Positions 6,002-30,269 of a stretch of DNA of 32,000 nucleotides are shown one piece after another (within the stretch, counting starts at the first letter, position 1; every line of letters begins with the position of its first letter). Made by a program: the position numbers and the translations under genes. A model generated the notes under the pieces. The model saw only the letters and a list, made by a program, of their open reading frames with translations. It had not been told where the DNA came from and made no database searches. The stretch is from Pirellula staleyi DSM 6068. GTDB lineage: Bacteria > Planctomycetota > Planctomycetia > Pirellulales > Pirellulaceae. The stretch is from positions 450,001 to 482,000 of the forward strand of contig CP001848.1 of the NCBI GenBank assembly GCA_000025185.1, read 5' to 3'.

Positions 6002-6023
6002 CGGGGTAATTTCCCCGAGGCTG

Positions 6024-6799: not shown

Positions 6800-6879
6800 A
6801 GTGCCTGCCTCCGTGCAAGGGTGCGGCGGGCGGCTCGAGGCCTCGCCCCGAGCATCCCACCTTCGAAGGCTTATCGCAC

Positions 6880-8343: not shown

Positions 8344-8374
8344 TTGTCACATTCATACTTCGCTATCGTTATTG

Positions 8375-8416
8375 GCGATCGGTCACATTCATTTCGTGGC
8401 CGATCGCTTTTTCTTT
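8375..8416 (+). terminator. Rho-independent terminator-like hairpin with a T-run
   Basis: GCGATCGG (8375-8382) pairs perfectly with CCGATCGC (8400-8407). Inner CAC/GTG pairs extend the stem. TTTTTCTTT follows immediately at 8408-8416. The T-run exists only for a + strand transcript. Confidence 0.5.
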
Positions 8417-8640
8417 GCGCTCACGCCGCTTCAGCCCAACCTCTAGCGCCACGCTCGCTCGTGAATTCTCCGCGAGCAACTCCCAAACTGAAGTTCGCCC
8501 TCCGCCCCCCTTTTGCTACACTCCTGCTGCCCGATTGCTGCCCGATCCGAGGTCTCGCGACGCTCGATCCCTGCTAGCACGCTTCTTTCTGTTCCCACCT
8601 TGCCTCGCGTTCCTTGCCTCCTCGCTGCAGAGTTCCACTC

Positions 8641-10297: not shown

Positions 10298-10552
10298 CGC
10301 CTGCCGCCATTTCTCGCTGAAGGATTTGCCGGTCGATTGCCAATAACTCTTGCATCAAGTGGCAACCGCATCACGGTAGAGCGATTCACACTAATCTTGT
10401 CCGCGCTTGCCAGCAACGGGACTGAGCTTTCATCGTCGCGAGTCGGCAAATTCGTTCAACGCAGGTGTAGCATCCCGCTCGATGATCCTCGATACTTCGC
10501 TTGCCGGATCCCGCCTCTCACGCTTTTCGACTCGCAAGCCAGGATTCCTCCG

Positions 10553-11626: not shown

Positions 11627-11758
11627 CGCTCCGATTTCGCTGCACACTTTTCCTTGCGAATTCGGCGCACCGCGCGCTACGTAAAGGTTGCACGCGCGCC
11701 AGCGGCAGACGATGCTCAGTAGTAGGGACCACTCGAACTCTTGGGGGAGTTTGTTCGC

Positions 11759-13009: not shown

Positions 13010-13109
13010 CGGACACCACTGGCCGCTCTCCAATCGGTAGCCCGTTTTGATAAGCCCCGCTATGATGCAAATCTCGTCACCCAATTCCTCGCAATCCTGA
13101 GCGCCGCAG

Positions 13110-14312: not shown

Positions 14313-14331
14313 CCTCGCCGTAGTTCACTTT

Positions 14332-15387: not shown

Positions 15388-15445
15388 CACCTGCTCACTC
15401 ACACTTCTCAGAGTTGTTTTTCGGGTCTATTTCCAGCGTTTTATG

Positions 15446-15484
15446 AACAAAAGAGCCTCGCGCGGCACATCACCGCGCGAGGCT
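15446..15484 (-). terminator. GC-rich hairpin plus U-tract between rtcB and rtcA (terminator or attenuator candidate)
   Basis: The minus-sense RNA reads AGCCUCGCGCGG-UGAUGUG-CCGCGCGAGGCU, a perfect 12-bp stem (15454-15465 / 15473-15484), followed by CUUUUGUU (15446-15453). Confidence 0.5.
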
Positions 15485-15528
15485 GAGTTTCATCACCTCC
15501 AAGCGTACAACTAGCGCACTTGGCCAAA

Positions 15529-17025
15529 TTAATCGTCGGCTGCATCGCCATCTTTGATCACGAACCGAGCCTTCAGTCGAGCCACTTCAGAAGCAAGTCC
15601 CGCGAGCTTTACGCTGCGCAAAACTTCCTCGAAGTCCTTGTACGCCGCCGGAGCTTCGTCCTTCGGGTACTGCCGACAGTTGGTCAAAATATCGTGATCG
15701 TCGAACGACTTATCAATCGACTGCTGATCGAGCGCTCGAATCGCTGCCTTACGCCCGAGCACACGACCTGCGCCGTGGTTCACGCTAAAGCAGCTCAGCG
15801 CTGCCCCTGCATCGGCCACCATCACTGCCGAACCTGCTTGCGGATTACCCGGGAGCAAGATCGGATGTCCGGTGTTCTCGTAAGGAGTCCCCTTCAAGGC
15901 ATGATGCCCTGCCGGGAATGCGCGCGTCGCACCTTTACGATGCACCCACGCCTTGCGATTCTCAACGACCTCTTCCCGCGCGATGTTGTGACTGATGAAG
16001 TACACCAGATCCCCCTTCACGCCAGGAAACACTTGCTGGAATGCTTCGAGCACTTGCAAGTTGATCACGAGGTGGTTCAGTGTCGCAAAGTTCGCACCGA
16101 GCGACATGTCGTCGATGTACGCATTTCCTTCGTCGGAACCGAGCGGTGCGTAGACCAATTCGCGATCGTTGCCCGGCAGCGGGATATCCCACTTCGCGAA
16201 CTTCGATTGCAGCGTCTTGAACTGATGCATCGCCAGGTTATGGCCGATCCCACGCGATCCGCAGTGCGACAAGAACGCAACGCATCCGTCGCGCAGACCA
16301 AACGTGTCAGCCACACTTCGCGCTCGCGCGTTATTCTCAATCTGCACCACTTCGCACTCACCAAAGTGGTTTCCTCCACCGTACGAACCGATCTGCTGCA
16401 GCTTCGAGCGGAGATCGCGAAACGTCCCGATTTCCTCGTGAAATTCGACCCGTTGGGCCAGCGCTACACTCGTTCCATCGTGCCCCACGTGATGCGAATC
16501 TTCGCACCGCGCGGCCCACTCCGGAGGGATTCCGAGTGCCTGACAAACGTCAGCCGAAGCGCCTTCGGCGAGAAGCGTGCGTCCCACATCGGTGTCCACG
16601 CGACGACCATGCTTCACGCTGCGTGCACCACGTCCCGCACCGGTCGGAATTCGGTTACATACAGCCATGATTAGTTCGCGTCGCACCCGTCGATCCTCGA
16701 TCGCGTCGGCCGGAAGATCCAGCTGCAAGAGACTCATTGAGCACTTGATATCAACCCCCACGGGACCCGGGTAGATATGTGATGGCGAGACCATCACGCA
16801 GCCGATCGGCGCACCGTAACCGAGGTGACCATCAGGATTGAGCACGACATGCGAAACCCCCGGCGCTCGCCGCGAATTGATCGCTTGTCGAATGCAGACT
16901 TCGTCGAACGTGTTGCGGATCGCTTCCGTTCCAATCACAGTCACGGGAGTCACATGGTCGCCAGCTGGCAGGATCGCCGTCGCTTCACCAGTTGCAATGA
17001 TCTGATTCATCGTTTTATTTTTCAT
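15529..17025 (-). CDS. rtcB: RNA ligase RtcB (long ~495-aa form)
   Basis: 498-aa ORF with RtcB hallmarks: NPDGHLGYGAPIG, GVDIKCSM, GGGNHFGECEVV, FLSHCGSRGIGH and VNHGAGRVLGR. An alternative ATG lies at 17010. Confidence 0.9.
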   Translation of the reverse strand: MKNKTMNQIIATGEATAILPAGDHVTPVTVIGTEAIRNTFDEVCIRQAINSRRAPGVSHVVLNPDGHLGYGAPIGCVMVSPSHIYPGPVGVDIKCSMSLLQLDLPADAIEDRRVRRELIMAVCNRIPTGAGRGARSVKHGRRVDTDVGRTLLAEGASADVCQALGIPPEWAARCEDSHHVGHDGTSVALAQRVEFHEEIGTFRDLRSKLQQIGSYGGGNHFGECEVVQIENNARARSVADTFGLRDGCVAFLSHCGSRGIGHNLAMHQFKTLQSKFAKWDIPLPGNDRELVYAPLGSDEGNAYIDDMSLGANFATLNHLVINLQVLEAFQQVFPGVKGDLVYFISHNIAREEVVENRKAWVHRKGATRAFPAGHHALKGTPYENTGHPILLPGNPQAGSAVMVADAGAALSCFSVNHGAGRVLGRKAAIRALDQQSIDKSFDDHDILTNCRQYPKDEAPAAYKDFEEVLRSVKLAGLASEVARLKARFVIKDGDAADD

Positions 17026-17031
17026 GTGATT

Positions 17032-17211
17032 TCAAGGAGAATACTGCCGCCGCGACAAAGTTTTGATGAAATGTTGCGCGCTCTATCCACTGAGCTACGG
17101 CCCTAAGAGTGGTCTCACTCCGCAGTAGAGCCGGTGGGGATCGAACCCACGACCTCGAGGTCCATAGCCTTGTAATTCCACCGGCATTCGCAGCAGCAGT
17201 ATTCTCCCTGA
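17032..17211 (-). ncRNA. yrlA: Y-RNA-like (YrlA-type) RNA: long basal stem plus a circularly permuted, capped tRNA-like core
   Basis: In minus-sense RNA, the 5' arm UCAGGGAGAAUACUGCUGCUGCGA (17211-17188) pairs with the 3' arm UCGCGGCGGCAGUAUUCUCCUUGA (17055-17032). That gives 24 bp, including three G-U pairs. Inside, in order: T-arm GUGGG-UUCGAUC-CCCAC (17150-17134); CGGCUC (17133-17128); a capping hairpin GAGUG-AGAC-CACUC; GGGCCG (17103-17098, pairing with CGGCUC as an acceptor-like stem); and D-arm GCUC-AGUGGAUA-GAGC (17095-17080). The element sits between rsr and rtcB, where YrlA lies in enteric bacteria. Confidence 0.7.
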
Positions 17212-17232
17212 TGATTCTCGTTCCTACCCAAC

Positions 17233-17364
17233 AAAAAAACTGCAAGACATAGGTCGCGACAAGAGTTTGTAGAAAGACTTTTTTGAGATCACTACTCGAG
17301 CAAGTAGCTCGAGCGCTCGATCCTCCAAGGATGTACTTCCTACGGCATTCGCTTCCTACGCTGC
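17233..17364 (-). ncRNA. Second structured RNA module (Y-RNA-like, YrlB-like candidate) ending in a U7 tract
   Basis: The 5' arm GCAGCGUAGGAAGCGA (17364-17349) pairs with the 3' arm UCGCGACCUAUGUCUUGC (17259-17242). That gives 14 bp with a 2x2 internal loop and a 2-nt bulge. AG-UUUUUUU follows (U-run 17239-17233). The apical hairpin is CUCGAGC-UACUU-GCUCGAG (17313-17295), extended by GAUC/GAUC and GAG(G)AUC/GAUCUC pairings. It shares sequence boxes with the YrlA-like element. Confidence 0.45.
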
Positions 17365-17411
17365 TTCCAAACCAACTTATTCACACGCAGCTACACTAGC
17401 TCACCACCCCG

Positions 17412-17465
17412 GCAGCCGGGATCCCCTTCACTGACCAATCAGACCACGTACTGGATCCCGGCTGC
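17412..17465 (-). repeat. Perfect 13-bp inverted repeat (stem-loop) downstream of rsr
   Basis: GCAGCCGGGATCC (17412-17424) and GGATCCCGGCTGC (17453-17465) are exact reverse complements. They enclose a 28-nt loop. The loop's minus-sense sequence contains the direct repeat UGGUCUG / UGGUCAG. Confidence 0.6.
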
Positions 17466-17540
17466 ATCCACTCCCATCACTCATGGCCAGCTCAAAGAGC
17501 TTTTCGAAGGGAGGCTGGTTCACCCGAAACATTGCTGTTT

Positions 17541-19136
17541 TTAGGCTTTTTCCGACGATTGGAGCTCGATTGCATCGATCTGCTTTACGAAGTAATCGGT
17601 TGCTGTACGTCCCTCGGCAATCTCGGCGAGCAGCGTAAAAACGTGATCGCTAAAACCACCGATATGGAAGATTTCACTGCGCTCGATCGCTTGCGTTGTC
17701 TCGCCTGGAACCAGGTCGAGACAGACAAGCTTTGCCTGCGGATTTCGTTTCTGAAACAACTGCCATTGACGCATCGTTTCCGTTGCGCGATGACCTTTCC
17801 ACTGGCTTTGCGAGTCGATCCACGATTCGTTATCCGAAACGTAAATCACCATCGAAGCCTTCAGTTGGCGAGCATTCGCATGCGCTAGCGCCGCACTACA
17901 ATTCGTTCCTACCGAAGGGAGCGAAGCGAGCTGCTGTGCTTGCTTCATCACAGGTTGCTGTCGATCGAGCTTAACCAGGATCACATCGTCCGAGAACGGA
18001 ATCACTTCCGCTTCCGGATTCTTGCGTACGATCGAAGCTGCGATCAGCGCCGCCACATCGATGCAGCGCACTTTCGACGTCGCCGAGCCGCGATTTCCCG
18101 TCGCAGGCGAGCGCATCGAACCCGAGACGTCGACCATCACTAGCACCTTTCCCTCAATGCGAGGCACGTTGCTAATGGCCAGTTCCATCGCCTCCCCCAG
18201 GGCTGCTTTGATCTTGGCCGGCAACGTTTCATTCATGTTTAAATAGGCTGCCATCAGCTGATACGGAAACACGCGTGCTTGCTGAATGGCTCGCGGATTC
18301 CGCAGCCGGTTGGCAATGCATCGCACCAGTTCTTGATCTTGCAGCACCCCATGGCGCTCGAACGTATTTAGGTTCATGCGCGTCGTTTGCCACGAGGCAT
18401 TTCGCGCAATCCGCTTCCAGTCGCTCGGGGTCAGCGGCAAATGGGTGAGCATGGAAAAAGGGACATCGGGGAGCTCATCCTTTCCACGAATCACCTGACG
18501 CTTGATCCGCTCATACTCCTGAACGATTGGCGGCAACGCCCCTTCCTCATACTCACGACCAATCAGCCAGGCATACAACGCCTCGCGCGATGGTGTCCGA
18601 GGGACGGGATGAACCATCTTGACGATATCACCCAGCGAAGGATCGTTTCCTACACTTCCCACAAACAACGCCTGATCACTACGAGCATCGAGCCACTCGC
18701 GCACTAGCCGCTTCGGTCGACTTCCGAGACTCTTGCGCCCCACCACTCCTGAGCGGATGATCTGCACAAAGTTGCGGAGCATCTTGGGCGAATCGATCAC
18801 ACGCTGAAACAGTTCAGAGGTCACCAGTTCGGGCGACTTGACGGTCAGTAGCGCCACCAGCAAGGCCGGTACATCTTTCAAATAGGCTCGATCGCGCGAG
18901 TAGATTGCGGCCCGCGCGATGAACTCCGGCGAAACTTTCTGTGCCAATCGGAGCACCGTAGCGAGGTGCGTTTCCGCATTGGCATAGCACGTGCTACCGA
19001 GCATGCCGGTAGCCACATACTGAGCCAGCGCTTGCTCGGCTGTCCGCGAATAAGCGAGCCCTCCGGCCCGATTGAGCACATCAGCTGCGGCGAAGAACTT
19101 GCCGACGATCGACTGAAACAACGACTTCGATGCCAT
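17541..19136 (-). CDS. rsr: Ro60-related protein Rsr (TROVE domain plus vWA domain)
   Basis: ORF 17541..19457. I start it at ATG 19136 (MASKSLFQSIVGKF...) for three reasons: AGGAG lies 10 nt upstream, a sigma-54 promoter lies at 19195-19211, and the longer ORF would overlap rtcR. The body is TROVE-like (LNRAGGLAYSRTAEQALAQYVATGMLGSTCYA...). The C-terminal vWA has the MIDAS motif VMVDVSGSM. Confidence 0.85.
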   Translation of the reverse strand: MASKSLFQSIVGKFFAAADVLNRAGGLAYSRTAEQALAQYVATGMLGSTCYANAETHLATVLRLAQKVSPEFIARAAIYSRDRAYLKDVPALLVALLTVKSPELVTSELFQRVIDSPKMLRNFVQIIRSGVVGRKSLGSRPKRLVREWLDARSDQALFVGSVGNDPSLGDIVKMVHPVPRTPSREALYAWLIGREYEEGALPPIVQEYERIKRQVIRGKDELPDVPFSMLTHLPLTPSDWKRIARNASWQTTRMNLNTFERHGVLQDQELVRCIANRLRNPRAIQQARVFPYQLMAAYLNMNETLPAKIKAALGEAMELAISNVPRIEGKVLVMVDVSGSMRSPATGNRGSATSKVRCIDVAALIAASIVRKNPEAEVIPFSDDVILVKLDRQQPVMKQAQQLASLPSVGTNCSAALAHANARQLKASMVIYVSDNESWIDSQSQWKGHRATETMRQWQLFQKRNPQAKLVCLDLVPGETTQAIERSEIFHIGGFSDHVFTLLAEIAEGRTATDYFVKQIDAIELQSSEKA

Positions 19137-19194
19137 GATTTGGATTCTCCTGCTGCGGGCCGATTTCTGAGCATGCCCGGGGCGAGAGAACAGA

Positions 19195-19211
19195 ATGCAC
19201 AGCGAGTGCCA
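19195..19211 (-). promoter_or_regulatory. Sigma-54 (-24/-12) promoter of the rsr-Y RNA-rtcBA operon
   Basis: The minus-sense sequence is TGGCAC-TCGCT-GTGCAT. GG and GC have the exact consensus spacing (TGGCAC-N5-TTGCW), with one mismatch. It lies ~60 nt upstream of the rsr ATG and divergent from the sigma-54 activator gene rtcR. Confidence 0.7.
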
Positions 19212-19308
19212 AACTTCAGATATTCCGCCAAACAATTCGCAAACCACTACAGATATTGGGCTTAGAGATATCCGCACCTTTGGTCTACAACGCCAACTTT
19301 CGCCTAAA

Positions 19309-19336
19309 TTGATCTTTAGCGATCGTCTCTTATAAT
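19309..19336 (+). promoter_or_regulatory. Sigma-70-like promoter of rtcR: TTGATC-N16-TATAAT
   Basis: TTGATC at 19309-19314 and a perfect TATAAT at 19331-19336. The rtcR ATG (19344) begins 8 nt after the -10 hexamer, which implies a leaderless or near-leaderless mRNA. Confidence 0.4.
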
Positions 19337-19343
19337 TTTGGAT

Positions 19344-20966
19344 ATGACGAAACAACGAAAACTGGTCGTGGTGGGGATCTTTGGGACGCGGCTGGACGCC
19401 GGGCATGCCAAATCGCGCTGGAACCGCTGGCGCCCCACTGTCTCGGTTTGCCAGCACGAAGATTTGCTCGTCGATAGGCTAGAACTAATTCATCAGCCGG
19501 GCGAAGAAGCTGTCGCCGACACACTGGTTCGGGACATCGCCAGTGTCTCGCCGGAAACGGAAGTCCGTCTCCATCCACTGAAGTTTAACGACGCTTGGGA
19601 TTTCGAAGAGGTCTTTGCCGCCCTCCATCACTGGTCGCGCGGGATGAACTTCCGCCCCGATACGGAAGACTATTTGATCCACATCACCACCGGGTCGCAT
19701 GTCCAGCAAATCTGCCTATTCCTCCTCGCCGAATCGCGGCACATCCCTGGACAACTCCTGCAGTCCTCCCCGCCGCTGCGAGCCGCTGAAGCGACCGGCG
19801 CCTATCGCATCATCGATCTCGATCTCTCGAAGTACGATGCCCTTGCGACCCGCTTTGCCGAAGAACAGCAGGAAGGACTCTCGTTCCTGAAATCGGGAAT
19901 CGAGACCCGCAGCCGCACGTTCAACACCCTCATCGAGCGGATCGAGCGAGTCGCTATTGCCAGCAGCGCGCCACTCTTGATCACCGGTCCCACCGGCGCG
20001 GGCAAATCGCAGCTGGCAGCGCGGATCTTCGAACTCAAGCGACGTCGTGGCCAAGTGCGCGGCAGTTTCGTCGAAGTGAACTGTGCCACTTTGCGCGGCG
20101 ATCAAGCCATGTCATCGCTCTTTGGACATGCCAAAGGGGCATTCACTGGCGCGACGACCCCGCGTGCTGGATTGCTTATGGCCGCTGATCAAGGGATCTT
20201 ATTCCTCGATGAAATCGGCGAGCTTGGGCGCGACGAGCAAGCGACGCTGCTGCGCGCGATCGAAGAAAAACGCTTTCTCCCAGTCGGCTGCGATCGAGAA
20301 ACAGCGAGCGACTTTCAGCTGATTGCAGGAACCAATCGCGATCTTGCAGCGGATGTCCACGCGGGACGCTTTCGCGAAGATTTGCTCGCGCGCATCAACC
20401 TATGGACCTTCCGACTGCCAGCCCTCGCCGAGCGCCGCGAGGATATCGAACCCAACATTCAGTATGAACTCGACCGCTACGCCGCACGGACCGGACAGCA
20501 GGTGACGATCAATAAAGAAGCGCGACAAAAGTTCCTGCAGTTTGCGCAGTCTCCGGCTGCAACATGGTCGGCCAATTTTCGCGACCTCAATGCGGCGATC
20601 ACACGCATGGCGACACTTGCCCCCAGTGGCCGGATCACCACCGACGAAGTGCACGACGAAATCGCTCGCCTCGAAAGTGCCTGGCAATTTTCGGGGAGTG
20701 ATTCAGGCAAGTCATCGCGCGACGATCTGTCGCTGCTCGTCGAACTCCTCGGCGACGAGAAAGTCGCAACGATCGATCTGTTCGATCGCGCGCAGCTCGC
20801 TGCTGTCGTGCGAATCTGCCGCGAAAGCGCGTCACTATCCGATGCTGGCCGGAAACTGTTTGCTATCTCACGGCTAGCCAAATCGCAGCCCAACGATGCC
20901 GATCGACTCCGCAAATTCCTAGCCCGTTTTGAGCTTAGCTGGACCGATTTCGCTGCGTCGCGGTAA
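19344..20966 (+). CDS. rtcR: Sigma-54-dependent transcriptional activator RtcR (N-terminal CARF-like domain, AAA+ domain, C-terminal HTH)
   Basis: ORF 19338..20966 (TTG); ATG at 19344 gives MTKQRKLVVVGIFGTRLDAG... The RtcR-type N-terminus is present. The AAA+ core has Walker A GPTGAGKS, the sigma-54 contact loop GHAKGAFTGA, and Walker B ILFLDEIGEL. Confidence 0.9.
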   Translation: MTKQRKLVVVGIFGTRLDAGHAKSRWNRWRPTVSVCQHEDLLVDRLELIHQPGEEAVADTLVRDIASVSPETEVRLHPLKFNDAWDFEEVFAALHHWSRGMNFRPDTEDYLIHITTGSHVQQICLFLLAESRHIPGQLLQSSPPLRAAEATGAYRIIDLDLSKYDALATRFAEEQQEGLSFLKSGIETRSRTFNTLIERIERVAIASSAPLLITGPTGAGKSQLAARIFELKRRRGQVRGSFVEVNCATLRGDQAMSSLFGHAKGAFTGATTPRAGLLMAADQGILFLDEIGELGRDEQATLLRAIEEKRFLPVGCDRETASDFQLIAGTNRDLAADVHAGRFREDLLARINLWTFRLPALAERREDIEPNIQYELDRYAARTGQQVTINKEARQKFLQFAQSPAATWSANFRDLNAAITRMATLAPSGRITTDEVHDEIARLESAWQFSGSDSGKSSRDDLSLLVELLGDEKVATIDLFDRAQLAAVVRICRESASLSDAGRKLFAISRLAKSQPNDADRLRKFLARFELSWTDFAASR

Positions 20967-21035: not shown

Positions 21036-22226
21036 TTACTTTTCCTTGAGCGCGGCGCTGATGCGACTCGCAACTTGAATCAGATTATCTCCTCGCAAAG
21101 CACCCTCGAGCAGTTGCGGCAACAGCTGCGGGGTACAAGCAAAACATGGAATGCCAAGCGCGGTAAGTTTTTTCGCTACAGCTTCATCGTAGCAAGGCTT
21201 GCCACTGTCGCTGAGCGCCAAGAGCACCATCACGCGCACTCCCGCAGCGCGCAGGTCTCCGAGCCGCCGTATCAGCTGCGCCTGATTCCCCCCTTCGAAC
21301 AAATCGGTGATCAACAGAAAAATCGTCTTCGAAGGTTCCTCGATGAATTGCTCGCTGTAGCCCACCGCCTTGTTAATATCGGTACCACCCCCCAACTGAA
21401 TGCCAAACAGCATGTCGACTGGATCGCCTGCACATTGCTCGGTGAGATCAACCACTTCGGTGTCGAACGCCATCACATGCGTTCGGAGCGCGGGGAGACT
21501 GGCAAAAATCGATCCACAAATAGCACCGTAAACCACCGAGTCGGCCATCGAGCCACTTTGATCGAGGTTCACAATCACGGTCCATTTGTGCGACCGCTGT
21601 TGTCGCGAATGAAAGAAGACCCGCTCGGGAATAATCGTCTTCAGACCGACATGATAGTTTTTGAGATTGCGACGAATCGTCGACTTCCAATCGATCGCGG
21701 CAGAGCTTGGAATGGGAGAATGCTCGCGCCGATTCAGGACACCACGCACGACACTTCGAATCGGCTGTTCGAGGGCTAGTTTGATTTTATCGACGACACT
21801 TCTCACCACCTCACGCGCGGTCTCTTTAGTACGCTCCGGTATCTGCCCCTTCAGCGACATCAGGGTCCCGACAAGCTGCACGTTCGGCTGTGCGACCTTC
21901 AGCATCTCGGGCTCGAGAAGGAGCTGTTTTAGTGACTTACGCTCAATCGCATCTTGCTGAATCACGGAGACGACATCTTCCTGGAAATAGGTGCGGATAT
22001 CGCCGAGCCATTTAGCAACGCGTGGTGCCGACGCATTTCGCCCAGCAGATCGTGCCCCCGATAGTCCCGCATCGGTGTCGTCGTAGATTGCGCCGAGCGC
22101 TTCATCCATCTCGAGTTGCTCGCGCGAGAGACCACAGCCCCCTGCACGCATGCGGGAGAGATCTTTATCAGCTTCGGGGCCGAGAATCAGCCGCCACCGC
22201 GCGAGTTGCTCTTGAGTGATGCTCAT
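21036..22226 (-). CDS. CoxE-type von Willebrand factor A (vWA) domain protein
   Basis: ORF 21036..22277 (TTG). I prefer ATG 22226 (MSITQEQLARWRLILG...). The MIDAS motif is intact: VIVNLDQSGSM...FLLITDLFEGG. It is the last gene of the five-gene cassette. Confidence 0.8.
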   Translation of the reverse strand: MSITQEQLARWRLILGPEADKDLSRMRAGGCGLSREQLEMDEALGAIYDDTDAGLSGARSAGRNASAPRVAKWLGDIRTYFQEDVVSVIQQDAIERKSLKQLLLEPEMLKVAQPNVQLVGTLMSLKGQIPERTKETAREVVRSVVDKIKLALEQPIRSVVRGVLNRREHSPIPSSAAIDWKSTIRRNLKNYHVGLKTIIPERVFFHSRQQRSHKWTVIVNLDQSGSMADSVVYGAICGSIFASLPALRTHVMAFDTEVVDLTEQCAGDPVDMLFGIQLGGGTDINKAVGYSEQFIEEPSKTIFLLITDLFEGGNQAQLIRRLGDLRAAGVRVMVLLALSDSGKPCYDEAVAKKLTALGIPCFACTPQLLPQLLEGALRGDNLIQVASRISAALKEK

Positions 22227-22263
22227 GGGAGACACGTTTTCCTTCGAATTCTGCTGAAAATAC

Positions 22264-24657
22264 TCACAAATCGCCAAAGTCGAAATCGTTCAGCGACTCG
22301 AGTTTCTCTTCTTCCATCGGGGTCAAAGGCTGCTCGATCAGCTCACTCACAGCATCGGTCGAGAGCTGCCAGTAGTGACTTAGATTCTCGACAATCTGCC
22401 GTTTGTTCTGGGGAGTGAAGGTGCCGAACACGCGTCGCAGCGAAACGAGCGCGCGTTTGAACTCCTCGTCGTCGAGTGCGCTTATGTAGTCGGCAAGCCG
22501 CTCCCAGAGCGTTTGCCTGGCCAGCAGCGCGTAGCGATTGCGCATCGCCAGTCCTTCGAACCAGCCAGCGCCGAGTTCGGCACTCGCGCCGGGTGATAAA
22601 CGCCGCGATACTTCGCGCGATAGATCGGCGCTCGTCATCCGCTCACGCTCCAGCAATATCGCGGTGGCATAGCCCGACAAGAGCGCGTTTTGTGTATCAG
22701 AACGTGCCAGTCGCTCGAGTGAACTGAGCCAGAGTTCCCCTTCTACAAGGTCGGTGAGCTGCAAATAGACACGATGCTGTTCATCAATGGCCAGCAGCAC
22801 GCTGCGAGCCATCGTGGTGTCGCAGCTCGCAGCATCAAACAGAGCAATCGCTCCTTGCACAAAGAGTTCTTCGATGAGCGGCAGCAGCACTGAAGCATCG
22901 ACTTGGCGCATGTCGCCATACTGCACGACAAACGCAAGTTGCCAAGCTGCTGTCGCCAGCGCACAAAACTCGCTCGACTCGGCCGCGAGCTCCTGCAAGC
23001 GACGGCGGGCATGCTCCATCGCACTGAAGAGCCCACATTCGCAAGCGTGCCGCACGAGCAGCGCTGCTTCGTTGATCGACGAGCACTCCTCGAGCAACTG
23101 TTTGAACTTGGCTTGTGTCGCCAGTTCGATCGTTTCCCCTAGCAACACCGCTTCGACCAGCGCGATCTCTGCTTCAGGAGACCAGCGGAGCACCCATCGC
23201 TCGGTCGGTGAAACATCGCTCGAACGCGAATCGCGATGCGGATTGACAAACGTGATGCCGAGCATCACGAGCCGATGCAGAAACGACGATCGAGCGAGAT
23301 CGAGAAACGCTGCCTCCTCGGATTTCACCTGTCTGTTCTCGCGAAGATCGAGCGTCAGGTCCTGAGCAACCGTGGTGCGATAGCGCTCGAGCTTCAGCCG
23401 CTTGAGCTCGCGCTCGAAGTCACTTTGAATCGACGTACGGCTGGTGCCATCGGGCAAGCTGCCGATTCGGGTTCCGACATCGACCTGGGCAATAGCATGC
23501 TTGATCGACGCAAGTTCTCCATGCCCCAGGAGCGCGACAGCAGCATCGTGCAAATCGGCGAGCGTTGGTGCCAGGCCATCACGAAGGGCCGAGAGTGTTT
23601 TGGCGAGTCGCACGCCGTCGATCACTTCGGCGGTGCTGCGATGCGTACCGCCACTACGAAGCTGGCTAGCGATCGACGACAGATAGTCGGGGGCCAGTTT
23701 CTCGAGTGATTGTTGGAGGGTGCTGAGCGCCGTATTGCGGCGCGGGTACTTCCTGCGCGGCAGGGTATTCCAAAGGAGCTCGAAATAGGCCGGCGCGCGA
23801 TTGCCAGCGCCATAGCCCGACTGCGATGAAAGTTTGAAATAGGAGTAAGGCATGAGGGTCAGCAGCGTTTCGCGGCGCGGGAGCGAAGCGAGCTCACGAT
23901 CGGTCATCGGGGGAAAGCTGCTAGTGAGGACTGGCGCATGAAACGCGCCGACCACCGCGACAATCTTCTCGGGGGGAGTTCCCGAAGCAATCGCTGCTGC
24001 AATTTGCCGGCGCATGTACGCCTCGCGCACCAAGTTTTCAGCGCGCCACGCAGGGGCATCTTCCTCCAGATCGCGGAGCATCCCTCCGAGTTCCAGCGCA
24101 GACTGGCGAAACGAATCACTCGCTAGATTATGCTCGAAATGACGCTCCCAGTAACTCTCGTAGTCGCTCTCTCCCGCGATCGTCGCCACCTGCTGATAGA
24201 TCGTCGCGCGATCAACCTCCACAGCGCTAGGCTCCTGAGCAACAGCCGCAGGCTCTAGCTCCGTATCGACTCCGGCTGTAGTCTCGGCTTCGTCGCGTAG
24301 TTTTTTCTCGAGCAGCAGCGCCTGCTGATCCGCGAGTCCTAAAAAAATATCGCTCGGCAGGTCGATCAATTCGGCTCGGGCACCCTGTTCTTTCGCCCAC
24401 AAGAGCGCCTGGTATTCGGGGCTGTAAATCGCCAGGGGATAGACAATAGTGCGCACTGGCGGCGTGCTGGTGTACGCCAGGAGCGCAACCGGTGGCTCGA
24501 CGGCGGACATCGTGAGTTCGAGCGCGTAGGGGGTGGCGTCGCTCGGTCCTTCGATAAGAACCAGTTCGGGCTGATGCTCGTCGAGAAACTCGCGCAAATG
24601 CCAAGCCGCCATCGGCGAGAGATGCCGGACCCCAAAAACGTTGATCTCGCCGCTCAC
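22264..24657 (-). CDS. DUF5682-like large protein (797 aa)
   Basis: The GTG start at 24657 overlaps the upstream AAA+ stop (GTGA). The N-terminus VFGVRHLSPMAAWHLREFLDEHQPELVLIEGPSD matches my recollection of the DUF5682 N-terminal signature (GxRHxxP...LIEGP). The rest is largely helical. Confidence 0.7.
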   Translation of the reverse strand: MSGEINVFGVRHLSPMAAWHLREFLDEHQPELVLIEGPSDATPYALELTMSAVEPPVALLAYTSTPPVRTIVYPLAIYSPEYQALLWAKEQGARAELIDLPSDIFLGLADQQALLLEKKLRDEAETTAGVDTELEPAAVAQEPSAVEVDRATIYQQVATIAGESDYESYWERHFEHNLASDSFRQSALELGGMLRDLEEDAPAWRAENLVREAYMRRQIAAAIASGTPPEKIVAVVGAFHAPVLTSSFPPMTDRELASLPRRETLLTLMPYSYFKLSSQSGYGAGNRAPAYFELLWNTLPRRKYPRRNTALSTLQQSLEKLAPDYLSSIASQLRSGGTHRSTAEVIDGVRLAKTLSALRDGLAPTLADLHDAAVALLGHGELASIKHAIAQVDVGTRIGSLPDGTSRTSIQSDFERELKRLKLERYRTTVAQDLTLDLRENRQVKSEEAAFLDLARSSFLHRLVMLGITFVNPHRDSRSSDVSPTERWVLRWSPEAEIALVEAVLLGETIELATQAKFKQLLEECSSINEAALLVRHACECGLFSAMEHARRRLQELAAESSEFCALATAAWQLAFVVQYGDMRQVDASVLLPLIEELFVQGAIALFDAASCDTTMARSVLLAIDEQHRVYLQLTDLVEGELWLSSLERLARSDTQNALLSGYATAILLERERMTSADLSREVSRRLSPGASAELGAGWFEGLAMRNRYALLARQTLWERLADYISALDDEEFKRALVSLRRVFGTFTPQNKRQIVENLSHYWQLSTDAVSELIEQPLTPMEEEKLESLNDFDFGDL

Positions 24658-25793
24658 GAGTTATGCTCCGAGCAAGCGTGGTGCAGCTGTTGCCACTCGC
24701 TGTCGCGCTTCTTCATCACGTTCGTGAGGTACTCTTTCCAAACGGCAGCATCTTTCTCTTCGTCCTTGACGATCGCCCCTTGTAGTCCGGCAGCAAGATC
24801 ATCAGGCAAGACTTCGCCCGTTCCAAAATTGGCGGCGAGTGCCATGCTTCCGGCGAGCACTGAAATCGCTTCTGCCGTGCTGAGAACCCCACTGGGGGAC
24901 TTGAGCTTGCTCTTGCCATCGAGCGTTTGCCCCGTTCGAAGCTCGCGGAAAATCGTCACGACACGTTCGACCGCTTCATCGGTCGGAAGTTCGGCGCGCA
25001 GTTCGAGGCTCGTCGCAAGTTCTCGCACTCGTTTACGCACGATCTCCACTTCGGTCGCCAGGGAAGAGGGTGTCGGGAGGACGACAATGTTGAAGCGACG
25101 CTTGAGAGCGGCCGACATGTCGTTGACACCCCGATCGCGCGTGTTGGCGGTAGCGATGATCGAGAATCCTTTTTGCGCAGCCACATCGCGGGCGAGTTCA
25201 GGCACGGCGAGGCGTTTTTCCGAGAGGAGCGAGATCATCGCATCTTGCACTTCGGAAGCGCAGCGCGTGATTTCTTCGAAGCGAGCGAGTGAGCCCTCTT
25301 CCATCGCGCGATAGATCGGACTTTTGATGAGCGACTGCTCACTGGGTCCTTGCGCGATCAGCATCGCGTAGTTCCAGGTGTAGCGGATCTGCTCTTCGGT
25401 CGTACCAGCAGTCCCCTGCACCACTTTGGTGGAATCGCCGTTGATGGCGGCGGCCAGATGCTCCGAGAGCCAACTTTTGGCAGTTCCCGGCTCACCGATG
25501 AGCAGCAGAGCGCGATCGGTCACCAGCGTAGCAATCGCGATTTCCACGAGTCGTGGAAAGCCGATGTATTTAGGGGAAATCTCGCAGCTTCCTGCTTTTC
25601 CGCCACATAAATAAGTGTGCACCGCACGGGCCGACATTTTCCAGCCGGGTGGACGAGGGTGGGTATCGTGAGCGATGAGTGCTTCGATCTCTACGGCGTA
25701 AGGCACCTCCGCTGGCGCGCGAAGTTCGCTCGTTTTCAGTGGCGCAGCTGTGACCTCCGAAGTGGTAATCGAAGCCGTTTGTTTCTTAGCCAT
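24654..25793 (-). CDS. MoxR-type AAA+ ATPase (AAA_5 / YehL-like)
   Basis: Walker A reads LLLIGEPGTAKSWL. The Walker-B region reads SLARFEEITRCASEVQDAMISLLSEKRL. Sensor-1 and the Arg region read FSIIATANTRDRGVNDMSAALKRRF. It has a single AAA+ module and 379 aa. Confidence 0.85.
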   Translation of the reverse strand: MAKKQTASITTSEVTAAPLKTSELRAPAEVPYAVEIEALIAHDTHPRPPGWKMSARAVHTYLCGGKAGSCEISPKYIGFPRLVEIAIATLVTDRALLLIGEPGTAKSWLSEHLAAAINGDSTKVVQGTAGTTEEQIRYTWNYAMLIAQGPSEQSLIKSPIYRAMEEGSLARFEEITRCASEVQDAMISLLSEKRLAVPELARDVAAQKGFSIIATANTRDRGVNDMSAALKRRFNIVVLPTPSSLATEVEIVRKRVRELATSLELRAELPTDEAVERVVTIFRELRTGQTLDGKSKLKSPSGVLSTAEAISVLAGSMALAANFGTGEVLPDDLAAGLQGAIVKDEEKDAAVWKEYLTNVMKKRDSEWQQLHHACSEHNS

Positions 25794-25848
25794 AGCATTT
25801 TCTAGCGAGACAAGTGAAGGGAGGAACGTTGTGCGATCGACGCGAGGT

Positions 25849-27684
25849 TTAGGCCTTGGTCGCTCGCCCCTTGAGGGCGTCGATCGCAGGAATTAGCTCC
25901 CCCAACCATTTATCAGGGAGTTCTTTAGCGATCGCCTCAAACTGTGGTGCCGACTCAGGTGGCAGGAGTGGAATCAGCCGGACGCAATCGGAAAAACCGT
26001 AGGAGCCATAGGATTGGTGCGCCGCTTTCATGAACTCAAGCAGCTTGAGCATCAGTTCGGTGGCGCGAGGATGCTCGGTATAAACGATCGACTGAGCCAG
26101 TTGTCGATAGTCCCACCAGTTTTTGGCAATGGCATGGATTTCGTCGATCTTCCGCGACAGATATTCCATCGCAGCGGAGTTGCCTGGGAGCGCGAGGTAG
26201 AGCACCAGCTCGGTGTTCTCCGACTTCATCGCTTCCTCGATCCAGCGGGGGTCGAAACGTCTGACCGTCGTAAACCATTCCTCACGCGTACTGTGATGGT
26301 TGTGCCCCTGACGAAACTGCAGCTTGATGCCGCTAGAGATCTTGCTGGCTCGATAATTGGCCTTACTTTCGCCTTTGGCGGGGCGCTTCTTTTCGTCGAG
26401 AACGACGGTTAAGTAGTGACTAAATTGGTGGAATAGCTCCGCCGGTGTCAGCAGCTGGAAGCCAGCGAGGAAGGCCTCCTCGAGCATGTCTCCTTGCAAC
26501 TCGGGGTGCAGCTCGAGTAGCGCACGCTGCAGTTTCTCCGAGCCTTGCCGCATCATCCTAGCGATATAGAGCGGGGGCTCTTGGGGGATGGGTGCGCGGA
26601 CAGACTTGAACTTATTGCGACTGGCGAAGATCGCGAGGATCACAGCATCTCCCTGCTCGCTTGGATGAGCGGCGAGAGATTCGAGCAATGCAAAGGCTCG
26701 AGGAGCAATCTTCTCCACCTCTTTGGGATCACTGGCTGCGATTAATTTCTCGAAAGCGGCCTGAGTCTCGTCGGCTAGCAGAGGGGCAAGAAGCGGGCTC
26801 TGAGATAGCTGAATGGTCCGGGCGGAAACGATCACGTCGTCCGACTTGACGACGCGCATCAGCTCGGCATCGGCCGCATCGCCACCGAGATCAACGAGTG
26901 CCGCAAGCGCAGCAGCACGGGTCTCTTTGTTGCGGGATTTGCAGAGTAGCGTTAGTCGCTCTCGATCTTCGCGGGAGCCTCCCAGGCACTCGATAGCAGC
27001 CAGTTTCACCGGGGGCGAACCATCGTCGAGCGACTTCATCACAAGGTCGCGCGCCGCTGTGGGATCGAGTCGATGGAGCACCTTCAGGCGTCGCGCATCG
27101 ACCATGTTTCCCTCGAAATTGAAACTGTTTCGTACGAGCGTGATCATCGAGGGTCCAATCGTGGGGAGAACCTTGTCGGCGATCAAGTCGGCAATCTCGG
27201 GATAGGGATCGCCCACCGCTCGAGCGAGCGCGAGTCGCAGCCGAATATCGCCGAGTAAGTTTCGCTCCAGCGCATCCTTGATCACTTCGATGCGGCCACC
27301 TCCGGTGGTAGTGAGGGCATCGAGGATCGGGACGAGCATCCGCGAGCTCAGCTGTCCAGGTGTACGTGGCGCCTCGAGCACCTCGAGCGGCGCCATGGTC
27401 TCGGTCGGCTTGATCGTCGGAGGCAAGGTATCGCACTGCGTGGCGCGGAGCGCGTGGACCAGGGTACTAAGCTCGTGCAGCGCCGGTGCCGACGACTTTT
27501 CGTCACTCTCGAGAAGCTTAGTAGCAGCAGCCGAAACCTTGGCAAACACCGGTGCCTTTTGGGCGAGCGATTCAATGGCAGGAAGCAGCCTCTGGAGACG
27601 AAAATCCCCCGGCGCGAGATTGCTGCCAGCGGTCGCCAAACGTCGCACTTCCCCGTAAAGTTGCTCGAGAACCGGAAGACTCAT
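25849..27684 (-). CDS. HEAT/ARM-like helical repeat protein (611 aa)
   Basis: Repeats resemble the HEAT_2/PBS-lyase type: MKSLDDGSPPVKLAAIECLGGSRE and CKSRNKETRAAALAALVDLGGDAA. The composition looks all-helical. There is no signal peptide and no TM segment. Confidence 0.6.
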   Translation of the reverse strand: MSLPVLEQLYGEVRRLATAGSNLAPGDFRLQRLLPAIESLAQKAPVFAKVSAAATKLLESDEKSSAPALHELSTLVHALRATQCDTLPPTIKPTETMAPLEVLEAPRTPGQLSSRMLVPILDALTTTGGGRIEVIKDALERNLLGDIRLRLALARAVGDPYPEIADLIADKVLPTIGPSMITLVRNSFNFEGNMVDARRLKVLHRLDPTAARDLVMKSLDDGSPPVKLAAIECLGGSREDRERLTLLCKSRNKETRAAALAALVDLGGDAADAELMRVVKSDDVIVSARTIQLSQSPLLAPLLADETQAAFEKLIAASDPKEVEKIAPRAFALLESLAAHPSEQGDAVILAIFASRNKFKSVRAPIPQEPPLYIARMMRQGSEKLQRALLELHPELQGDMLEEAFLAGFQLLTPAELFHQFSHYLTVVLDEKKRPAKGESKANYRASKISSGIKLQFRQGHNHHSTREEWFTTVRRFDPRWIEEAMKSENTELVLYLALPGNSAAMEYLSRKIDEIHAIAKNWWDYRQLAQSIVYTEHPRATELMLKLLEFMKAAHQSYGSYGFSDCVRLIPLLPPESAPQFEAIAKELPDKWLGELIPAIDALKGRATKA

Positions 27685-27756
27685 CGCGCGGCATCCATGA
27701 TCGAGAGTGTGAGTGGAGTGATCGCCATACCACCGAGGCGCGTGGTAGTAAGGAGG

Positions 27757-29229
27757 CTAAACCGTCAGCCGAATCAGTTCGTCGTGCGTGACGATCGAGA
27801 GTGGCTTGGCGGTGAGCAGTCCCGCGTCGATGTCGTAGGAGAACCGCGCCACGAGGACCTTCCCTTCGAGAGCGGCAGGTGGCAGGAGCGACAGAAGCTC
27901 GCAGCTGGGGGACTCGCTGAGATCGCTTTCGTCGGTAAGTAGGAGCCGATTCTGCTTGGCATCTTCCACAATCAATGCCTCTCCAATCTTGCCAATTCTG
28001 GCAAATTTCAAGGCAAAAACGGGATTGTGATCGGTCAGCGGCTGTCGCAAATGGTTCTTCACCTCTTTGACGACGGCTGAAAAATCGGAGGCCGCCAGCT
28101 CGAAGATGCGCTGATAGTCGCGCGGCTCGACGATGCGCGCCTCGTAAGCTTCCCAGCGGACGCGCGGGTTCATCGTACCGGGATAGACGGCGAGCTCAGC
28201 TACCACGGCAACGCGCGCGAAACTATCGTCGGCCGGAATCATCTTCGCCGCTTTGTAGGGACGAAAATTCTGCGTCACTTGGATCTTCCCACTTGTGAGG
28301 TTAATCCAAGTGCCGACGTCGACAAAAGCCTTCCGCGCTGCGTCGTCGTGTGTGTGAAACGCGAGCTGCATCAGTTCGACGTTGGTCTCGACCAGTCCCA
28401 ACTCTTTGAGTTCGCGCAGCTGCCAGATTTGCCCCGTGAGCATCGCGATGTTCGATTCGGTATCGGGCAGCTTCTCCGGGTTGTCGATGCGGCTTTGCAG
28501 ATAGGCCTTCCCTTGTCGCGCGAGTGCGCCAAGCTTGGTGAGTTGCTCAAGGGCCAGCGTGAAACGGGCATCATCGCTCACTTCCTCGTCCGGTTTCCTC
28601 TTGCGCGAGCGACGCGAAGCACCTGCCGCACTTGTGAAGAGCTGCGCGTAGCGATCGAGCATCACCTGCGCTTCGGGCAGATAGCCGGTGGCGAGCTGCG
28701 GTGAGATTTTGGTTTGCACTTCGTCCGCTGCAGCCTCGGTGACATTCCCAAGCCCTTGGCGCATGTGGTCGAAAGCGAGTCGCTCGAGGATCTCGAGGCC
28801 ATCGATCTGCGCTTGAAACTTTTTGGCAAGCGCCGACTTGTTCACCTTGCGAGGCTTTGTCTCCTCGACCTTTTTCTTCTCCACCCGCTCGGCCACTTTT
28901 TCCCGTTTGGCAGCGATCGTTGCAGGGATCTCAGCCGACGTGAACTTCTCTCCCGCAGCGTAGGCAATCAGTAAACCAATCGAATGCTTGCAAGGAAATT
29001 GACGGCTCGGACAGCTGCAACGGTAGACGGCTGCCGTCGGAAACTGGAAATCGGCGCTGCAGAGGTAAGGCTCCTTGCCACTCCCTTGGCAGTAACCAAA
29101 CAGCAGCGTTTCGTCAGCAGAAATGCAAAGTTCGGTGAACTTCTTTTTCAGGGCCAGAGCACGGCCATTCTTCACGGCGTCGGCATTGGGTGCGGCTGCC
29201 GTGATGAACGCATCGTCGATCGAAATCAT
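27757..29229 (-). CDS. SWIM zinc-finger family protein
   Basis: ORF 27757..29322. I prefer ATG 29229 (MISIDDAFITAAAPNADAVKNGRALA...), which has GAGG 9 nt upstream. The SWIM signature CxCx(n)CxH is present in YRCSCPSRQFPCKHSIGLLIAYA, preceded by LFGYCQGSGKEPY. Confidence 0.8.
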   Translation of the reverse strand: MISIDDAFITAAAPNADAVKNGRALALKKKFTELCISADETLLFGYCQGSGKEPYLCSADFQFPTAAVYRCSCPSRQFPCKHSIGLLIAYAAGEKFTSAEIPATIAAKREKVAERVEKKKVEETKPRKVNKSALAKKFQAQIDGLEILERLAFDHMRQGLGNVTEAAADEVQTKISPQLATGYLPEAQVMLDRYAQLFTSAAGASRRSRKRKPDEEVSDDARFTLALEQLTKLGALARQGKAYLQSRIDNPEKLPDTESNIAMLTGQIWQLRELKELGLVETNVELMQLAFHTHDDAARKAFVDVGTWINLTSGKIQVTQNFRPYKAAKMIPADDSFARVAVVAELAVYPGTMNPRVRWEAYEARIVEPRDYQRIFELAASDFSAVVKEVKNHLRQPLTDHNPVFALKFARIGKIGEALIVEDAKQNRLLLTDESDLSESPSCELLSLLPPAALEGKVLVARFSYDIDAGLLTAKPLSIVTHDELIRLTV

Positions 29230-29345
29230 CCGTGGAACCTCAATCGGGGTGTGATCGAAGCGAACGCTCGGCGCGACAGATCGGAGCGAGGAGCCACTCA
29301 TTATGGGGGAAGCAATTGCCACCTGCCAGTCGACGCGCCGAAGAA

Positions 29346-30269
29346 ATGACGCGCACCAGTTTCACCTTGCTGCGAAGTGCCACGCCCCCCTATATTCGCC
29401 CCATGGAGAAGCGTGGAACGAAGTCCGAACGAGCGAAAGATCGCCCCACCGCAGCCCCGGCTCAGGGGAAGCAGGAGCGACCGCGGCTGATGCCTCCCCC
29501 CGAGGTCTCGCTGGGGCTCGAGGATTTTGCCGCGCCAGCCGATGATCAGGGGCTCAGCCTCGAGGAACTGGGGCAAGCTTATGCGGCGATGCTGCATCAG
29601 GGAGCCGATCCCTACCCACAGCCTGGCGATCCACCAAGCACCCCAGCGACCACGACAACCACCACAGCCGAGGCCGCGCCGACGGAGCTCGAAGAGCCTC
29701 CGCGGGTGATCGATGGGACCGACGACGATGGGTGCGAAATCACCCCCCGCAGCATTTTGGAGGCGATTTTGTTCGTCGGTCATCCGCAAGGAGAGCCACT
29801 CACGAGCACACAAATCGCAGCGCTGATGCGCGGCGTTCGAACTGCCGAAATCGACGAGCTGGTGGTCGAACTGAATGAAAAATACGACGAGCTCGGAACC
29901 GCTTACACCATTGCGTCGATCGGCGCCGGATATCAGTTGCAGTTGCGCAGCGAACTGAGCCCTCTACGCGACAAGTTCTATGGGCGTGTCCGCGAAGCAA
30001 AGCTATCGCAGGTGGCTGTCGATATCCTGGCAGTGGTGGCGTATCACCAGCCGATCTCGCAGGAACAGATCGACAAAATGCGTGCGAAACCTTGCGGCGG
30101 CATGCTTTCGCAGCTAGTGCGGCGCGAACTGTTGCGCGTCGAGCGCGATCCCACGGCGGGACCGAAAGCGAAGCCTAAATACGTGACGACCGATCGATTT
30201 CTCGATCTGTTTGGTCTCGAAAGCCTGGCTGAACTTCCGCGCAGCCACGACCCCGAAAAGTCACTCTGA
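29346..30269 (+). CDS. scpB: SMC-Scp complex subunit ScpB with a long Pro/Thr-rich N-terminal extension
   Basis: ORF 29232..30269; start candidates are ATG 29346 and ATG 29403. The conserved core reads ILEAILFVGHPQGEPLTSTQIA...KLSQVAVDILAVVAYHQPISQEQIDKMRA...GMLSQLVRRELLRVER. Confidence 0.8.
   Translation: MTRTSFTLLRSATPPYIRPMEKRGTKSERAKDRPTAAPAQGKQERPRLMPPPEVSLGLEDFAAPADDQGLSLEELGQAYAAMLHQGADPYPQPGDPPSTPATTTTTTAEAAPTELEEPPRVIDGTDDDGCEITPRSILEAILFVGHPQGEPLTSTQIAALMRGVRTAEIDELVVELNEKYDELGTAYTIASIGAGYQLQLRSELSPLRDKFYGRVREAKLSQVAVDILAVVAYHQPISQEQIDKMRAKPCGGMLSQLVRRELLRVERDPTAGPKAKPKYVTTDRFLDLFGLESLAELPRSHDPEKSL

Follow-up and report, generated by a model that had tools for sequence, protein, structure and literature searches.

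A conserved five-gene MoxR–vWA cassette of Pirellula staleyi and a candidate hydrolase domain in its DUF5682 protein

We analysed a cassette of five genes in a stretch of 32,000 nucleotides from the genome of Pirellula staleyi DSM 6068 (contig CP001848.1, positions 450,001 to 482,000; this whole stretch is the window, and coordinates are counted from its first letter). The cassette encodes a SWIM zinc-finger protein, a HEAT-repeat protein, a MoxR-type AAA+ ATPase, a DUF5682 protein and a vWA protein. It is a functionally uncharacterised five-component MoxR–vWA system, a variant of the Escherichia coli yeh cluster, and its DUF5682 protein appears, on motif and model evidence with weak scores, to begin with a hydrolase domain of the TIKI/TraB/Ere type. 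We give an even chance to a reading in which an ATP-driven remodelling motor and an adaptor with a metal-ion-dependent adhesion site (MIDAS) act together with a TIKI-like hydrolase on a solenoid scaffold, the client being picked by the SWIM and HEAT proteins.

The five-gene module and its relation to the yeh cluster

All five open reading frames (ORFs) are co-directional on the minus strand (27757-29322, 25849-27684, 24654-25793, 22264-24657 and 21036-22277). Gene 1 (27757..29229; 490 amino acids (aa) from ATG 29229, the longest ORF reaching GTG 29322) encodes the SWIM zinc-finger protein; gene 2 (25849..27684; 611 aa) the HEAT-repeat solenoid protein; gene 3 (24654..25793; 379 aa) a single-module MoxR AAA+ ATPase of the YehL subfamily; gene 4 (22264..24657; 797 aa, GTG start) the DUF5682/YehM-family protein; and gene 5 (21036..22226; 397 aa from ATG 22226, the longest ORF reaching TTG 22277) the CoxE-type vWA protein. 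The AAA+ stop codon and the DUF5682 start codon overlap as GTGA at 24654-24657, and the remaining gaps are 72 nt (SWIM–HEAT), 55 nt (HEAT–AAA+) and 37 nt (DUF5682–vWA, measured from ATG 22226). Independent gene calls place rtcR convergently on one side and scpB divergently on the other. A sequence-only reading of the window had proposed this cassette, and its ORFs, the GTGA overlap, the 37-72 nt gaps and the rtcR/scpB flanks were all verified, as were the motifs it had quoted (CSCPSRQFPCKH, GEPGTAKS, FEE and DQSGSM), which are all found in the translations. The extents it gave stand as ORFs, but the SWIM and vWA genes likely start further downstream, at ATG 29229 and ATG 22226, as judged from the independent gene calls and the family alignment. 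Support for the GTG start of the DUF5682 gene at 24657 comes from a conserved G-x-R-H motif, which would be lost with a start further downstream. The DUF5682 protein shares a 90%-identity cluster with Pirellula staleyi Psta_0365.

Pfam profiles recovered every domain named for the five proteins at or above its gathering score. The SWIM match was marginal (21.8 bits versus a cut-off of 19.6); the others were HEAT_2 in gene 2 (2.9e-8), AAA_5 in gene 3 (2e-38), DUF5682 in gene 4 (2.9e-143) and VWA_CoxE in gene 5 (1.5e-47). A search of the window proteins against NCBIfam returned nothing informative. The SWIM domain was detected in 20 of 20 members of the first-slot family, and HEAT families in 12 of 19 second-slot proteins; the profile of the HEAT-slot family matches alphaRep/HEAT chains of the PDB with E-values down to 7e-24. 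The nearest solved sequence relatives of the AAA+ protein are the AAA modules of Midasin (E = 7e-12), and PDB sequence searches found no solved sequence relatives of the DUF5682, vWA and SWIM proteins.

The family alignments show the motifs of the ATPase, of the MIDAS and of the SWIM finger to be complete and invariant. In the SWIM finger C-x-C-x9-C-x-H (CSCPSRQFPCKH; 28984..29019, minus strand), Cys and His are invariant in 60 of 60 aligned members; the finger is N-terminal and precedes a linker rich in Lys and Glu, after which come ~300 aa of C-terminal sequence in which no family was recognisable. In the AAA+ protein, Walker A GEPGTAKS (25473..25496, minus strand) is invariant in 74/74 members, and both sensor-1 ATAN and KRRF of the Arg-finger region are present in 76/76. 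The F-E-E at the Walker-B position (25272..25280, minus strand) lies within an R-x-E-E-I signature, whose E-E is invariant in 76/76 members. It had been called unusual; R-x-E-E, however, is found in all 76 YehL-type members, and E. coli YehL also reads RFEEI, so that on alignment evidence FEE is a signature of the YehL subfamily and no defect. In the vWA protein, D-Q-S-G-S (21549..21563, minus strand) belongs to a DxSGS motif invariant in 70/70 members, and the MIDAS is completed by a downstream Thr (GGGTD) and Asp (ITDLFEG), both conserved across the family.

The DUF5682 family comprises 2,920 cluster representatives at 50% identity (E<=1e-3), and a scan of one genome per species gave at least 596 confirmed DUF5682 loci, the best 80 of which come from Planctomycetota, Bacillota, Bacteroidota and Fusobacteriota. 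Layouts were counted over 82 sampled loci and flanking families were clustered over 80, the cassette genes being detected by hidden Markov models built from first-round hits. The order SWIM–HEAT–AAA–DUF5682–vWA, on one strand, was found in 56 of the 82 loci across the four phyla, and the exceptions are mostly loci on incomplete contigs. Since order and strand recur in this way, the operon arrangement does not arise by chance, and the expectation that the five genes co-occur in other genomes is borne out. Clustering of the flanking ORFs revealed no sixth conserved gene, the most frequent non-cassette family being present in 11/80 loci; the recurrent neighbours (ABC transporter, response regulator, aldo-keto reductase, ROK) are generic, and a sixth cassette gene was rejected. 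In a second planctomycete genome the identical five genes lie between insertion sequence (IS) elements and unrelated genes. The cassette is thus a self-contained five-gene module: its order is conserved, its flanks vary and no sixth gene recurs. With plasmid and metagenome loci included, it is found in at least seven phyla.

We compared the window proteins with those of E. coli K-12 by BLASTP. The AAA+ protein is 42% identical to YehL over 364 aa (1e-87), the DUF5682 protein 25% identical to YehM (1e-27) and the vWA protein 36% identical to YehP (6e-78). The three are full-length homologues and, in the E. coli arrangement yehI-(yehK)-yehL-yehM-yehP-yehQ, from which the YehL subfamily of MoxR ATPases takes its name, collinear with the core of the window cassette; YehL and YehP share the R-F-E-E-I, Walker A and MIDAS motifs with their window counterparts. 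As in the window, one gene of the E. coli cluster encodes a protein with a SWIM finger and another a large helical protein. However, the SWIM gene is last in E. coli (yehQ) and first in the window, and neither BLASTP nor hhalign found homology between YehQ and the window SWIM protein beyond the finger. The proposal that the yehLMPQ cluster has the same domain set therefore holds for the AAA+, DUF5682 and vWA proteins as homologues, whereas for the two SWIM proteins only the finger was found in common. The solenoid slot is taken by the 1,210-aa DUF4132 protein YehI in E. coli versus the 611-aa HEAT protein in the window, and the latter gave no DUF4132 Pfam hit and no similarity to YehI, YehF or YehK.

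More distant DUF5682 members (~30% identity) lie in the layout SWIM (~450 aa)–DUF5691–AAA_5–DUF5682–VWA_CoxE, seen in all sampled distant loci whose flanks were long enough. The first-slot protein of these loci is a full-length homologue of the window SWIM protein (hhalign 99.7%, 385 columns, same CxCx9CxH); the HEAT protein and DUF5691 aligned collinearly at an hhalign probability of 2-7%, and their homology is not demonstrated. A Bacillus mycoides plasmid carries DUF4132–AAA–DUF5682–vWA–SWIM, the layout of E. coli yehI-(yehK)-yehLMPQ. By sequence comparison there are, then, two layouts, each built on an invariant AAA–DUF5682–vWA core, to which a SWIM protein and a large helical protein of variable kind are added; the window belongs to a 'type 1' layout in common with the DUF5691-containing loci and separate from that of E. 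coli. Because the DUF4132-containing order recurs on the B. mycoides plasmid, YehI is probably a member of the E. coli system, in the place that the HEAT protein takes here.

Individual loci vary further. One (L067) has two tandem HEAT-slot genes (4729-8704), and in a Myroides locus (L063, 5309-8438) HEAT and SWIM have changed places. In a Pirellulaceae locus (L007, 7261-13665) just AAA–DUF5682–vWA are present, with a Wadjet JetD-like gene (JetD_C + DUF3322) directly upstream, in the place of SWIM and HEAT. Between the AAA+ and DUF5682 genes, a distant locus on a JGI contig encodes a PDDEXK_3 nuclease-fold protein (132 aa; 8541-8939), and a Deinococcus locus (L092) a 78-aa hypothetical protein (8774-9010).

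The literature search found no functional characterisation of DUF5682 or of yehLMPQ, in agreement with the earlier statement that no function is assigned to members of this type, and the term 'DUF5682' was found in none of the papers searched. In these papers, mentions of yehL, yehM, yehP and yehQ are confined to lists of genes, a study of H-NS, a table of Shigella deletions and a paper on frameshift prediction, the FSscan screen, which treats yehP (locus L001, E. coli K-12, 11968-13104) at length as a candidate site of +1 ribosomal frameshifting (PMC2790909). YehL is one of seven named MoxR subfamilies, with no function given. The cassette is thus a known unknown, already catalogued as families of unknown function, and not a new kind of system. 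The DUF5682 family is large, the cassette is present in nearly every E. coli genome, and solved relatives of its proteins are limited to the generic AAA+ and HEAT folds. Our analysis adds the full list of components, the two layouts, and a candidate catalytic domain with candidate residues (H12, E36 and H240).

The N-terminal domain of DUF5682 and a possible mechanism

The AlphaFold2 model of the DUF5682 protein, built on an 84-sequence alignment, has a mean pLDDT (predicted local distance difference test) of 92.6 and a pTM (predicted template-modelling score) of 0.90, and is composed of an N-terminal alpha/beta domain (~1-290), a mixed middle part and a C-terminal alpha-solenoid. The invariant residues of the family cluster in the N-terminal 290 aa, where H12, E36, E81, D99, E175, R211, E212 and H240 are invariant or nearly so; E36 and H240 are invariant, and H12 is near-invariant (invariant in A2 and A3). 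In the model, R11-H12 come after strand 1, E36 is at the end of strand 2, R211-E212-x-x-M215 forms a further motif and G237-A-x-H240 comes after strand 6, and a His-Glu pair with a second His (H12, E36, H240) is seen at or just past strand ends.

Four motifs of this domain, hhGxxH, hhhE, R[EN]xx[MW] and VGAxH, are collinear with, and spaced similarly to, motifs of YbaP, a TraB-family protein from E. coli, H12 pairing with H41, E36 with E67, R211 with R228 and H240 with H252. Across 18 N-terminal domains the sole recurrent non-self Pfam matches were to ChaN ('Tiki superfamily'; in 4 members) and to TraB (in 2), with TraB aligned on the R211...H240 block. When the domain was modelled alone (pLDDT 89.4), its top six Foldseek matches in the PDB were Bcr135 (2rad, 3b55) and a Tetrahymena complex IV chain (383-384 residues), and the seventh match was ~10-fold worse in E-value. 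Judging by its length and by the supplement of the complex IV paper, the Tetrahymena chain is the probable TraB-family subunit COXTT5 (385-aa 'TraB family protein'); a YbaP/TraB profile, which is shallow, did not retrieve this chain from the PDB. All six top matches thus plausibly belong to the TIKI/TraB/Ere superfamily, of which Bcr135 is a recognised structure (TIKI/Ere family). Active enzymes of the TIKI superfamily have a conserved His-Glu pair, the two lying 28 residues apart in Bcr135 and RRSP (PMC6254334), versus 24 for H12 and E36 in DUF5682.

On the strength of the YbaP-collinear motifs, the ChaN and TraB matches, the fold matches and the His-Glu pair, the N-terminal domain of DUF5682 (aa 1-300; 23758..24657, minus strand) appears to be a hydrolase domain of the TIKI/TraB/Ere type, albeit with weak scores. 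As in the TIKI/TraB/PrgY/GumN/erythromycin-esterase/ChaN superfamily, a conserved His and Glu lie at strand ends of the domain, which is alpha/beta in the model. Unlike the members of this superfamily, the DUF5682 domain has a ~130-aa helical insertion between its two halves and is fused to ~500 aa of further structure, including the solenoid. It also lacks the Glu that stands two residues before the first His in the 2His/2Glu motif of RRSP. A protease- or esterase-like domain in DUF5682 appears not to have been noticed before.

Several observations weigh against this assignment. The ChaN (0.016) and TraB (0.023) matches are both under their Pfam cut-offs, and the Foldseek scores of the N-terminal domain are weak (E-values 6e-3 to 8e-2, TM ~0.3). 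A whole-chain Foldseek search of the PDB with the DUF5682 model gave only weak alpha-solenoid matches, none at E<=1e-3, and hhalign of the domain against the YbaP/TraB profile gave 3% probability over the VGAxH strand only, this profile being shallow (Neff ~2) and drawn from close relatives. A profile of the N-terminal domain found no meaningful match among PDB sequences. Some TIKI-fold proteins are non-enzymatic, for example the haem binder ChaN, or PMT, which is without the catalytic motif. As regards a complex of the five proteins, gene content suggests that DUF5682 can function outside it: in two Capnocytophaga loci (L032, 9103-12777; L044, 9139-12763) the DUF5682 gene occurs without AAA+, vWA, SWIM or HEAT genes. 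The Capnocytophaga protein is 45% identical to that of the window; its gene has on one side a gene for a protein of ~300 aa that matches RHS repeats weakly, and on the other a DinB_2 gene.

Most likely, the five proteins would make up one machine that remodels proteins, is driven by ATP and is coupled to a hydrolase. By analogy with RavA–ViaA, CbbQ–CbbO, NorQ–NorD and CoxD–CoxE, the AAA+ protein would form a hexameric motor, and the vWA protein, as in characterised MoxR–vWA pairs, would be its adaptor, gripping the client through the MIDAS metal site. DUF5682 would supply the putative TIKI/TraB/Ere-like hydrolase domain, with its His-Glu pair and second His, on an alpha-solenoid. The motor may either remodel the client and then pass it on to this putative protease or esterase, or switch DUF5682 on. 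Selection of the client might fall to the SWIM protein together with the solenoid, which is interchangeable (HEAT in the window, DUF5691 or DUF4132 in other loci). There is a precedent in jumbo phages, where a MoxR–vWA pair is joined to a peptidase (PMC7824862). An analogy can also be drawn with Midasin/Rea1, which follows the same logic of AAA motor, long helical linker and MIDAS domain, but in one polypeptide of ~4,900 aa with six AAA modules, whereas the cassette has separate proteins and one AAA module. A stronger proposal takes the cassette for a hydrolytic machine of a new class, ATP-dependent and with five subunits, in which a TIKI-type DUF5682/YehM protease is fed or activated by the MoxR motor and the MIDAS adaptor, and in which the SWIM-finger protein and the interchangeable solenoid decide on the client. 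This would be a prokaryotic, midasin-like system of quality control or processing, split over several proteins and overlooked in the core genome of E. coli; we regard the proposal as unlikely. If the hydrolase prediction is true, bacterial cell biology would gain a new type of AAA+-coupled protease or esterase, and E. coli, where the genes are under repression by H-NS/StpA, would offer a convenient model.

Maturation and conflict as possible alternative roles

RavA–ViaA, CbbQ–CbbO, NorQ–NorD and CoxD–CoxE likewise have a single-module MoxR AAA+ protein beside a MIDAS-bearing vWA protein, and in the literature MoxR proteins are linked to the maturation or activation of specific complexes. The cassette could thus be a dedicated chaperone for the metal centre or cofactor of one enzyme, comparable to CoxD–CoxE for CO dehydrogenase, NorQ–NorD for nitric-oxide reductase, and CobS–CobT. 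Indeed, its ATPase is a MoxR protein, its vWA protein falls in the VWA_CoxE family, and the intact MIDAS and ATPase motifs are compatible with such a role. However, the known maturation pairs need just the AAA+ and vWA proteins, whereas here three more large proteins, SWIM, solenoid and DUF5682, are strictly co-conserved, and no conserved candidate for the client enzyme adjoins the cassette in the 80 loci, which makes this role very unlikely. The cassette AAA+ is also set apart from the two-component pairs by the E-E at the Walker-B position, the signature of the YehL subfamily.

The sequence-only reading had also hinted at a conflict system. In the vWA–MoxR–VMAP ternary systems, which are treated as conflict systems in the literature and resemble the cassette in architecture, a MoxR ATPase and a vWA protein are also found with further large partners. 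In an anti-phage or other system with an NTPase, a vWA protein and an effector, the MoxR–vWA pair would sense invasion and turn on DUF5682 as a proteolytic effector, a part for which its candidate hydrolase domain could serve. The patchy distribution of the cassette suggests horizontal transfer, its closest relatives outside Planctomycetota among the best 80 loci (~50% identity) being in Paenibacillus and other Bacillota, and some loci lie among mobile or conflict genes (IS elements and HicA; JetD; SUKH immunity genes). E. coli yehL and yehM are under H-NS/StpA repression, and on plasmid pOB3b3 of Methylosinus trichosporium OB3b the cassette lies in an IS6-bracketed segment with toxin–antitoxin genes.

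The distribution as a whole nevertheless speaks against this hint, and we consider a conflict role improbable. None of the five proteins matched PADLOC-DB 2.0 at E<=0.01, and the bpMoxR Pfam match of the AAA+ protein scored 25.8 bits versus a cut-off of 27 and covered profile positions 10-62 of 205 only; in both respects the cassette differs from the vWA–MoxR–VMAP systems. It differs from them also in its core-like distribution in E. coli, where 5,353 of 5,426 complete genomes have the yehL-Q DNA as a single chromosomal copy, unlike typical accessory defence islands. DUF5682 was found on 37 of 72,556 plasmids, 28 of them non-mobilisable and most very large, and on 1 of 50,697 phage records; the genes flanking the cassette belong mostly to ordinary housekeeping families. 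This distribution, unlike that of a typical defence island, and the absence of a linked client enzyme narrow the plausible roles.

The pOB3b3 segment (L093; record 68510-88630), possibly a composite mobile one, is bracketed by two copies of one IS6 transposase. Besides the cassette, it holds a Phd/VapC pair, a recombinase, an IS66 element and the immunity gene Imm26. The phage record, MT835988.1, matches DUF5682 at 10533-12755 with 44% identity and 99% coverage. It is an unannotated 14-kb metagenomic contig from human gut, and may be a bacterial contig filed as phage.

RNA-repair genes and other neighbours

A complete RNA-repair module, rtcR / rsr-YrlA-rtcB-rtcA, adjoins the cassette at 14320-20966. 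It consists of rtcR (19344-20966, plus strand) and, divergent from it on the minus strand, rsr (17541-19136; Ro60-TROVE-vWA), rtcB (15517-17013) and rtcA (14320-15375), the same arrangement as in Salmonella. The 527-nt gap between rsr and rtcB folds far better than its shuffles (z = -5.8) and contains a full-length Rfam match to the Y RNA-like YrlA (17046-17194, minus strand; 52.2 bits, E = 8.7e-11, under the gathering score of 69), which is probably a planctomycete Y RNA missed by the Rfam threshold.

It is conceivable that the cassette encodes a split midasin-like remodeller acting in the response to RNA or ribonucleoprotein damage alongside RtcB and Rsr. Besides the adjoining module in the window, RtcB genes are co-directional inside or adjoining the cassette in three loci (L077, L055 and L041) and within 4.2 kb of it in two (L013 and L036), and in a distant locus (L084) genes for Hen1, Pnkp and TROVE are close by. 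By a rough estimate, six RtcB neighbours were seen in 82 loci where fewer than one was expected by chance. The closest solved relatives of the AAA+ protein, moreover, are Midasin modules, and the linker of the SWIM protein is highly basic. However, the RtcB events are not independent, as 3 of the 6 loci are from related Paenibacillaceae; other planctomycete loci are without RtcB and Rsr, and E. coli yehI-Q does not adjoin rtcBA. In the reverse test, which took the 80 metagenomic proteins most closely related to the cassette-linked short RtcB, none had a cassette gene within 10 kb (0/39 among loci of at least 8 kb), and a general coupling of RtcB to the cassette was rejected on this result. The association is sporadic and not family-wide, the literature search found nothing linking the cassette to RtcB, and we judge the damage-response role highly improbable.

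RtcB genes in or adjoining the cassette were seen in Clostridia and Cohnella loci (L077, 3499-6839; L055, 5583-8023; L041, 4317-5555 and 13779-16567). The order in L077 is AAA–DUF5682–RtcB–ankyrin–unknown (466 aa)–vWA–unknown (475 aa). In L041 there are RtcB paralogues on both sides of the cassette, and after the downstream one come genes for an AAA ATPase and for a protein with a SEC-C motif.

On its other side the cassette is separated from scpB by a divergent intergenic region of 260 bp (29230..29489), the presumed promoter region of the operon. A sigma-70-like match was found at 29329-29300 (minus strand); the number of such matches was not above shuffle expectation, and neither the promoter nor the terminator scans exceeded it. 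In several Clostridia loci the gene directly after the cassette encodes Hsp33 (4 loci; L040, 13657-14547) or a ClpB/ClpC-like ATPase (5 loci; L067, 13772-16084), and the one before it YebC/TACO1 (6 loci; L067, 1506-2234). These neighbours are protein-homeostasis genes, and the pattern may reflect lineage synteny alone.

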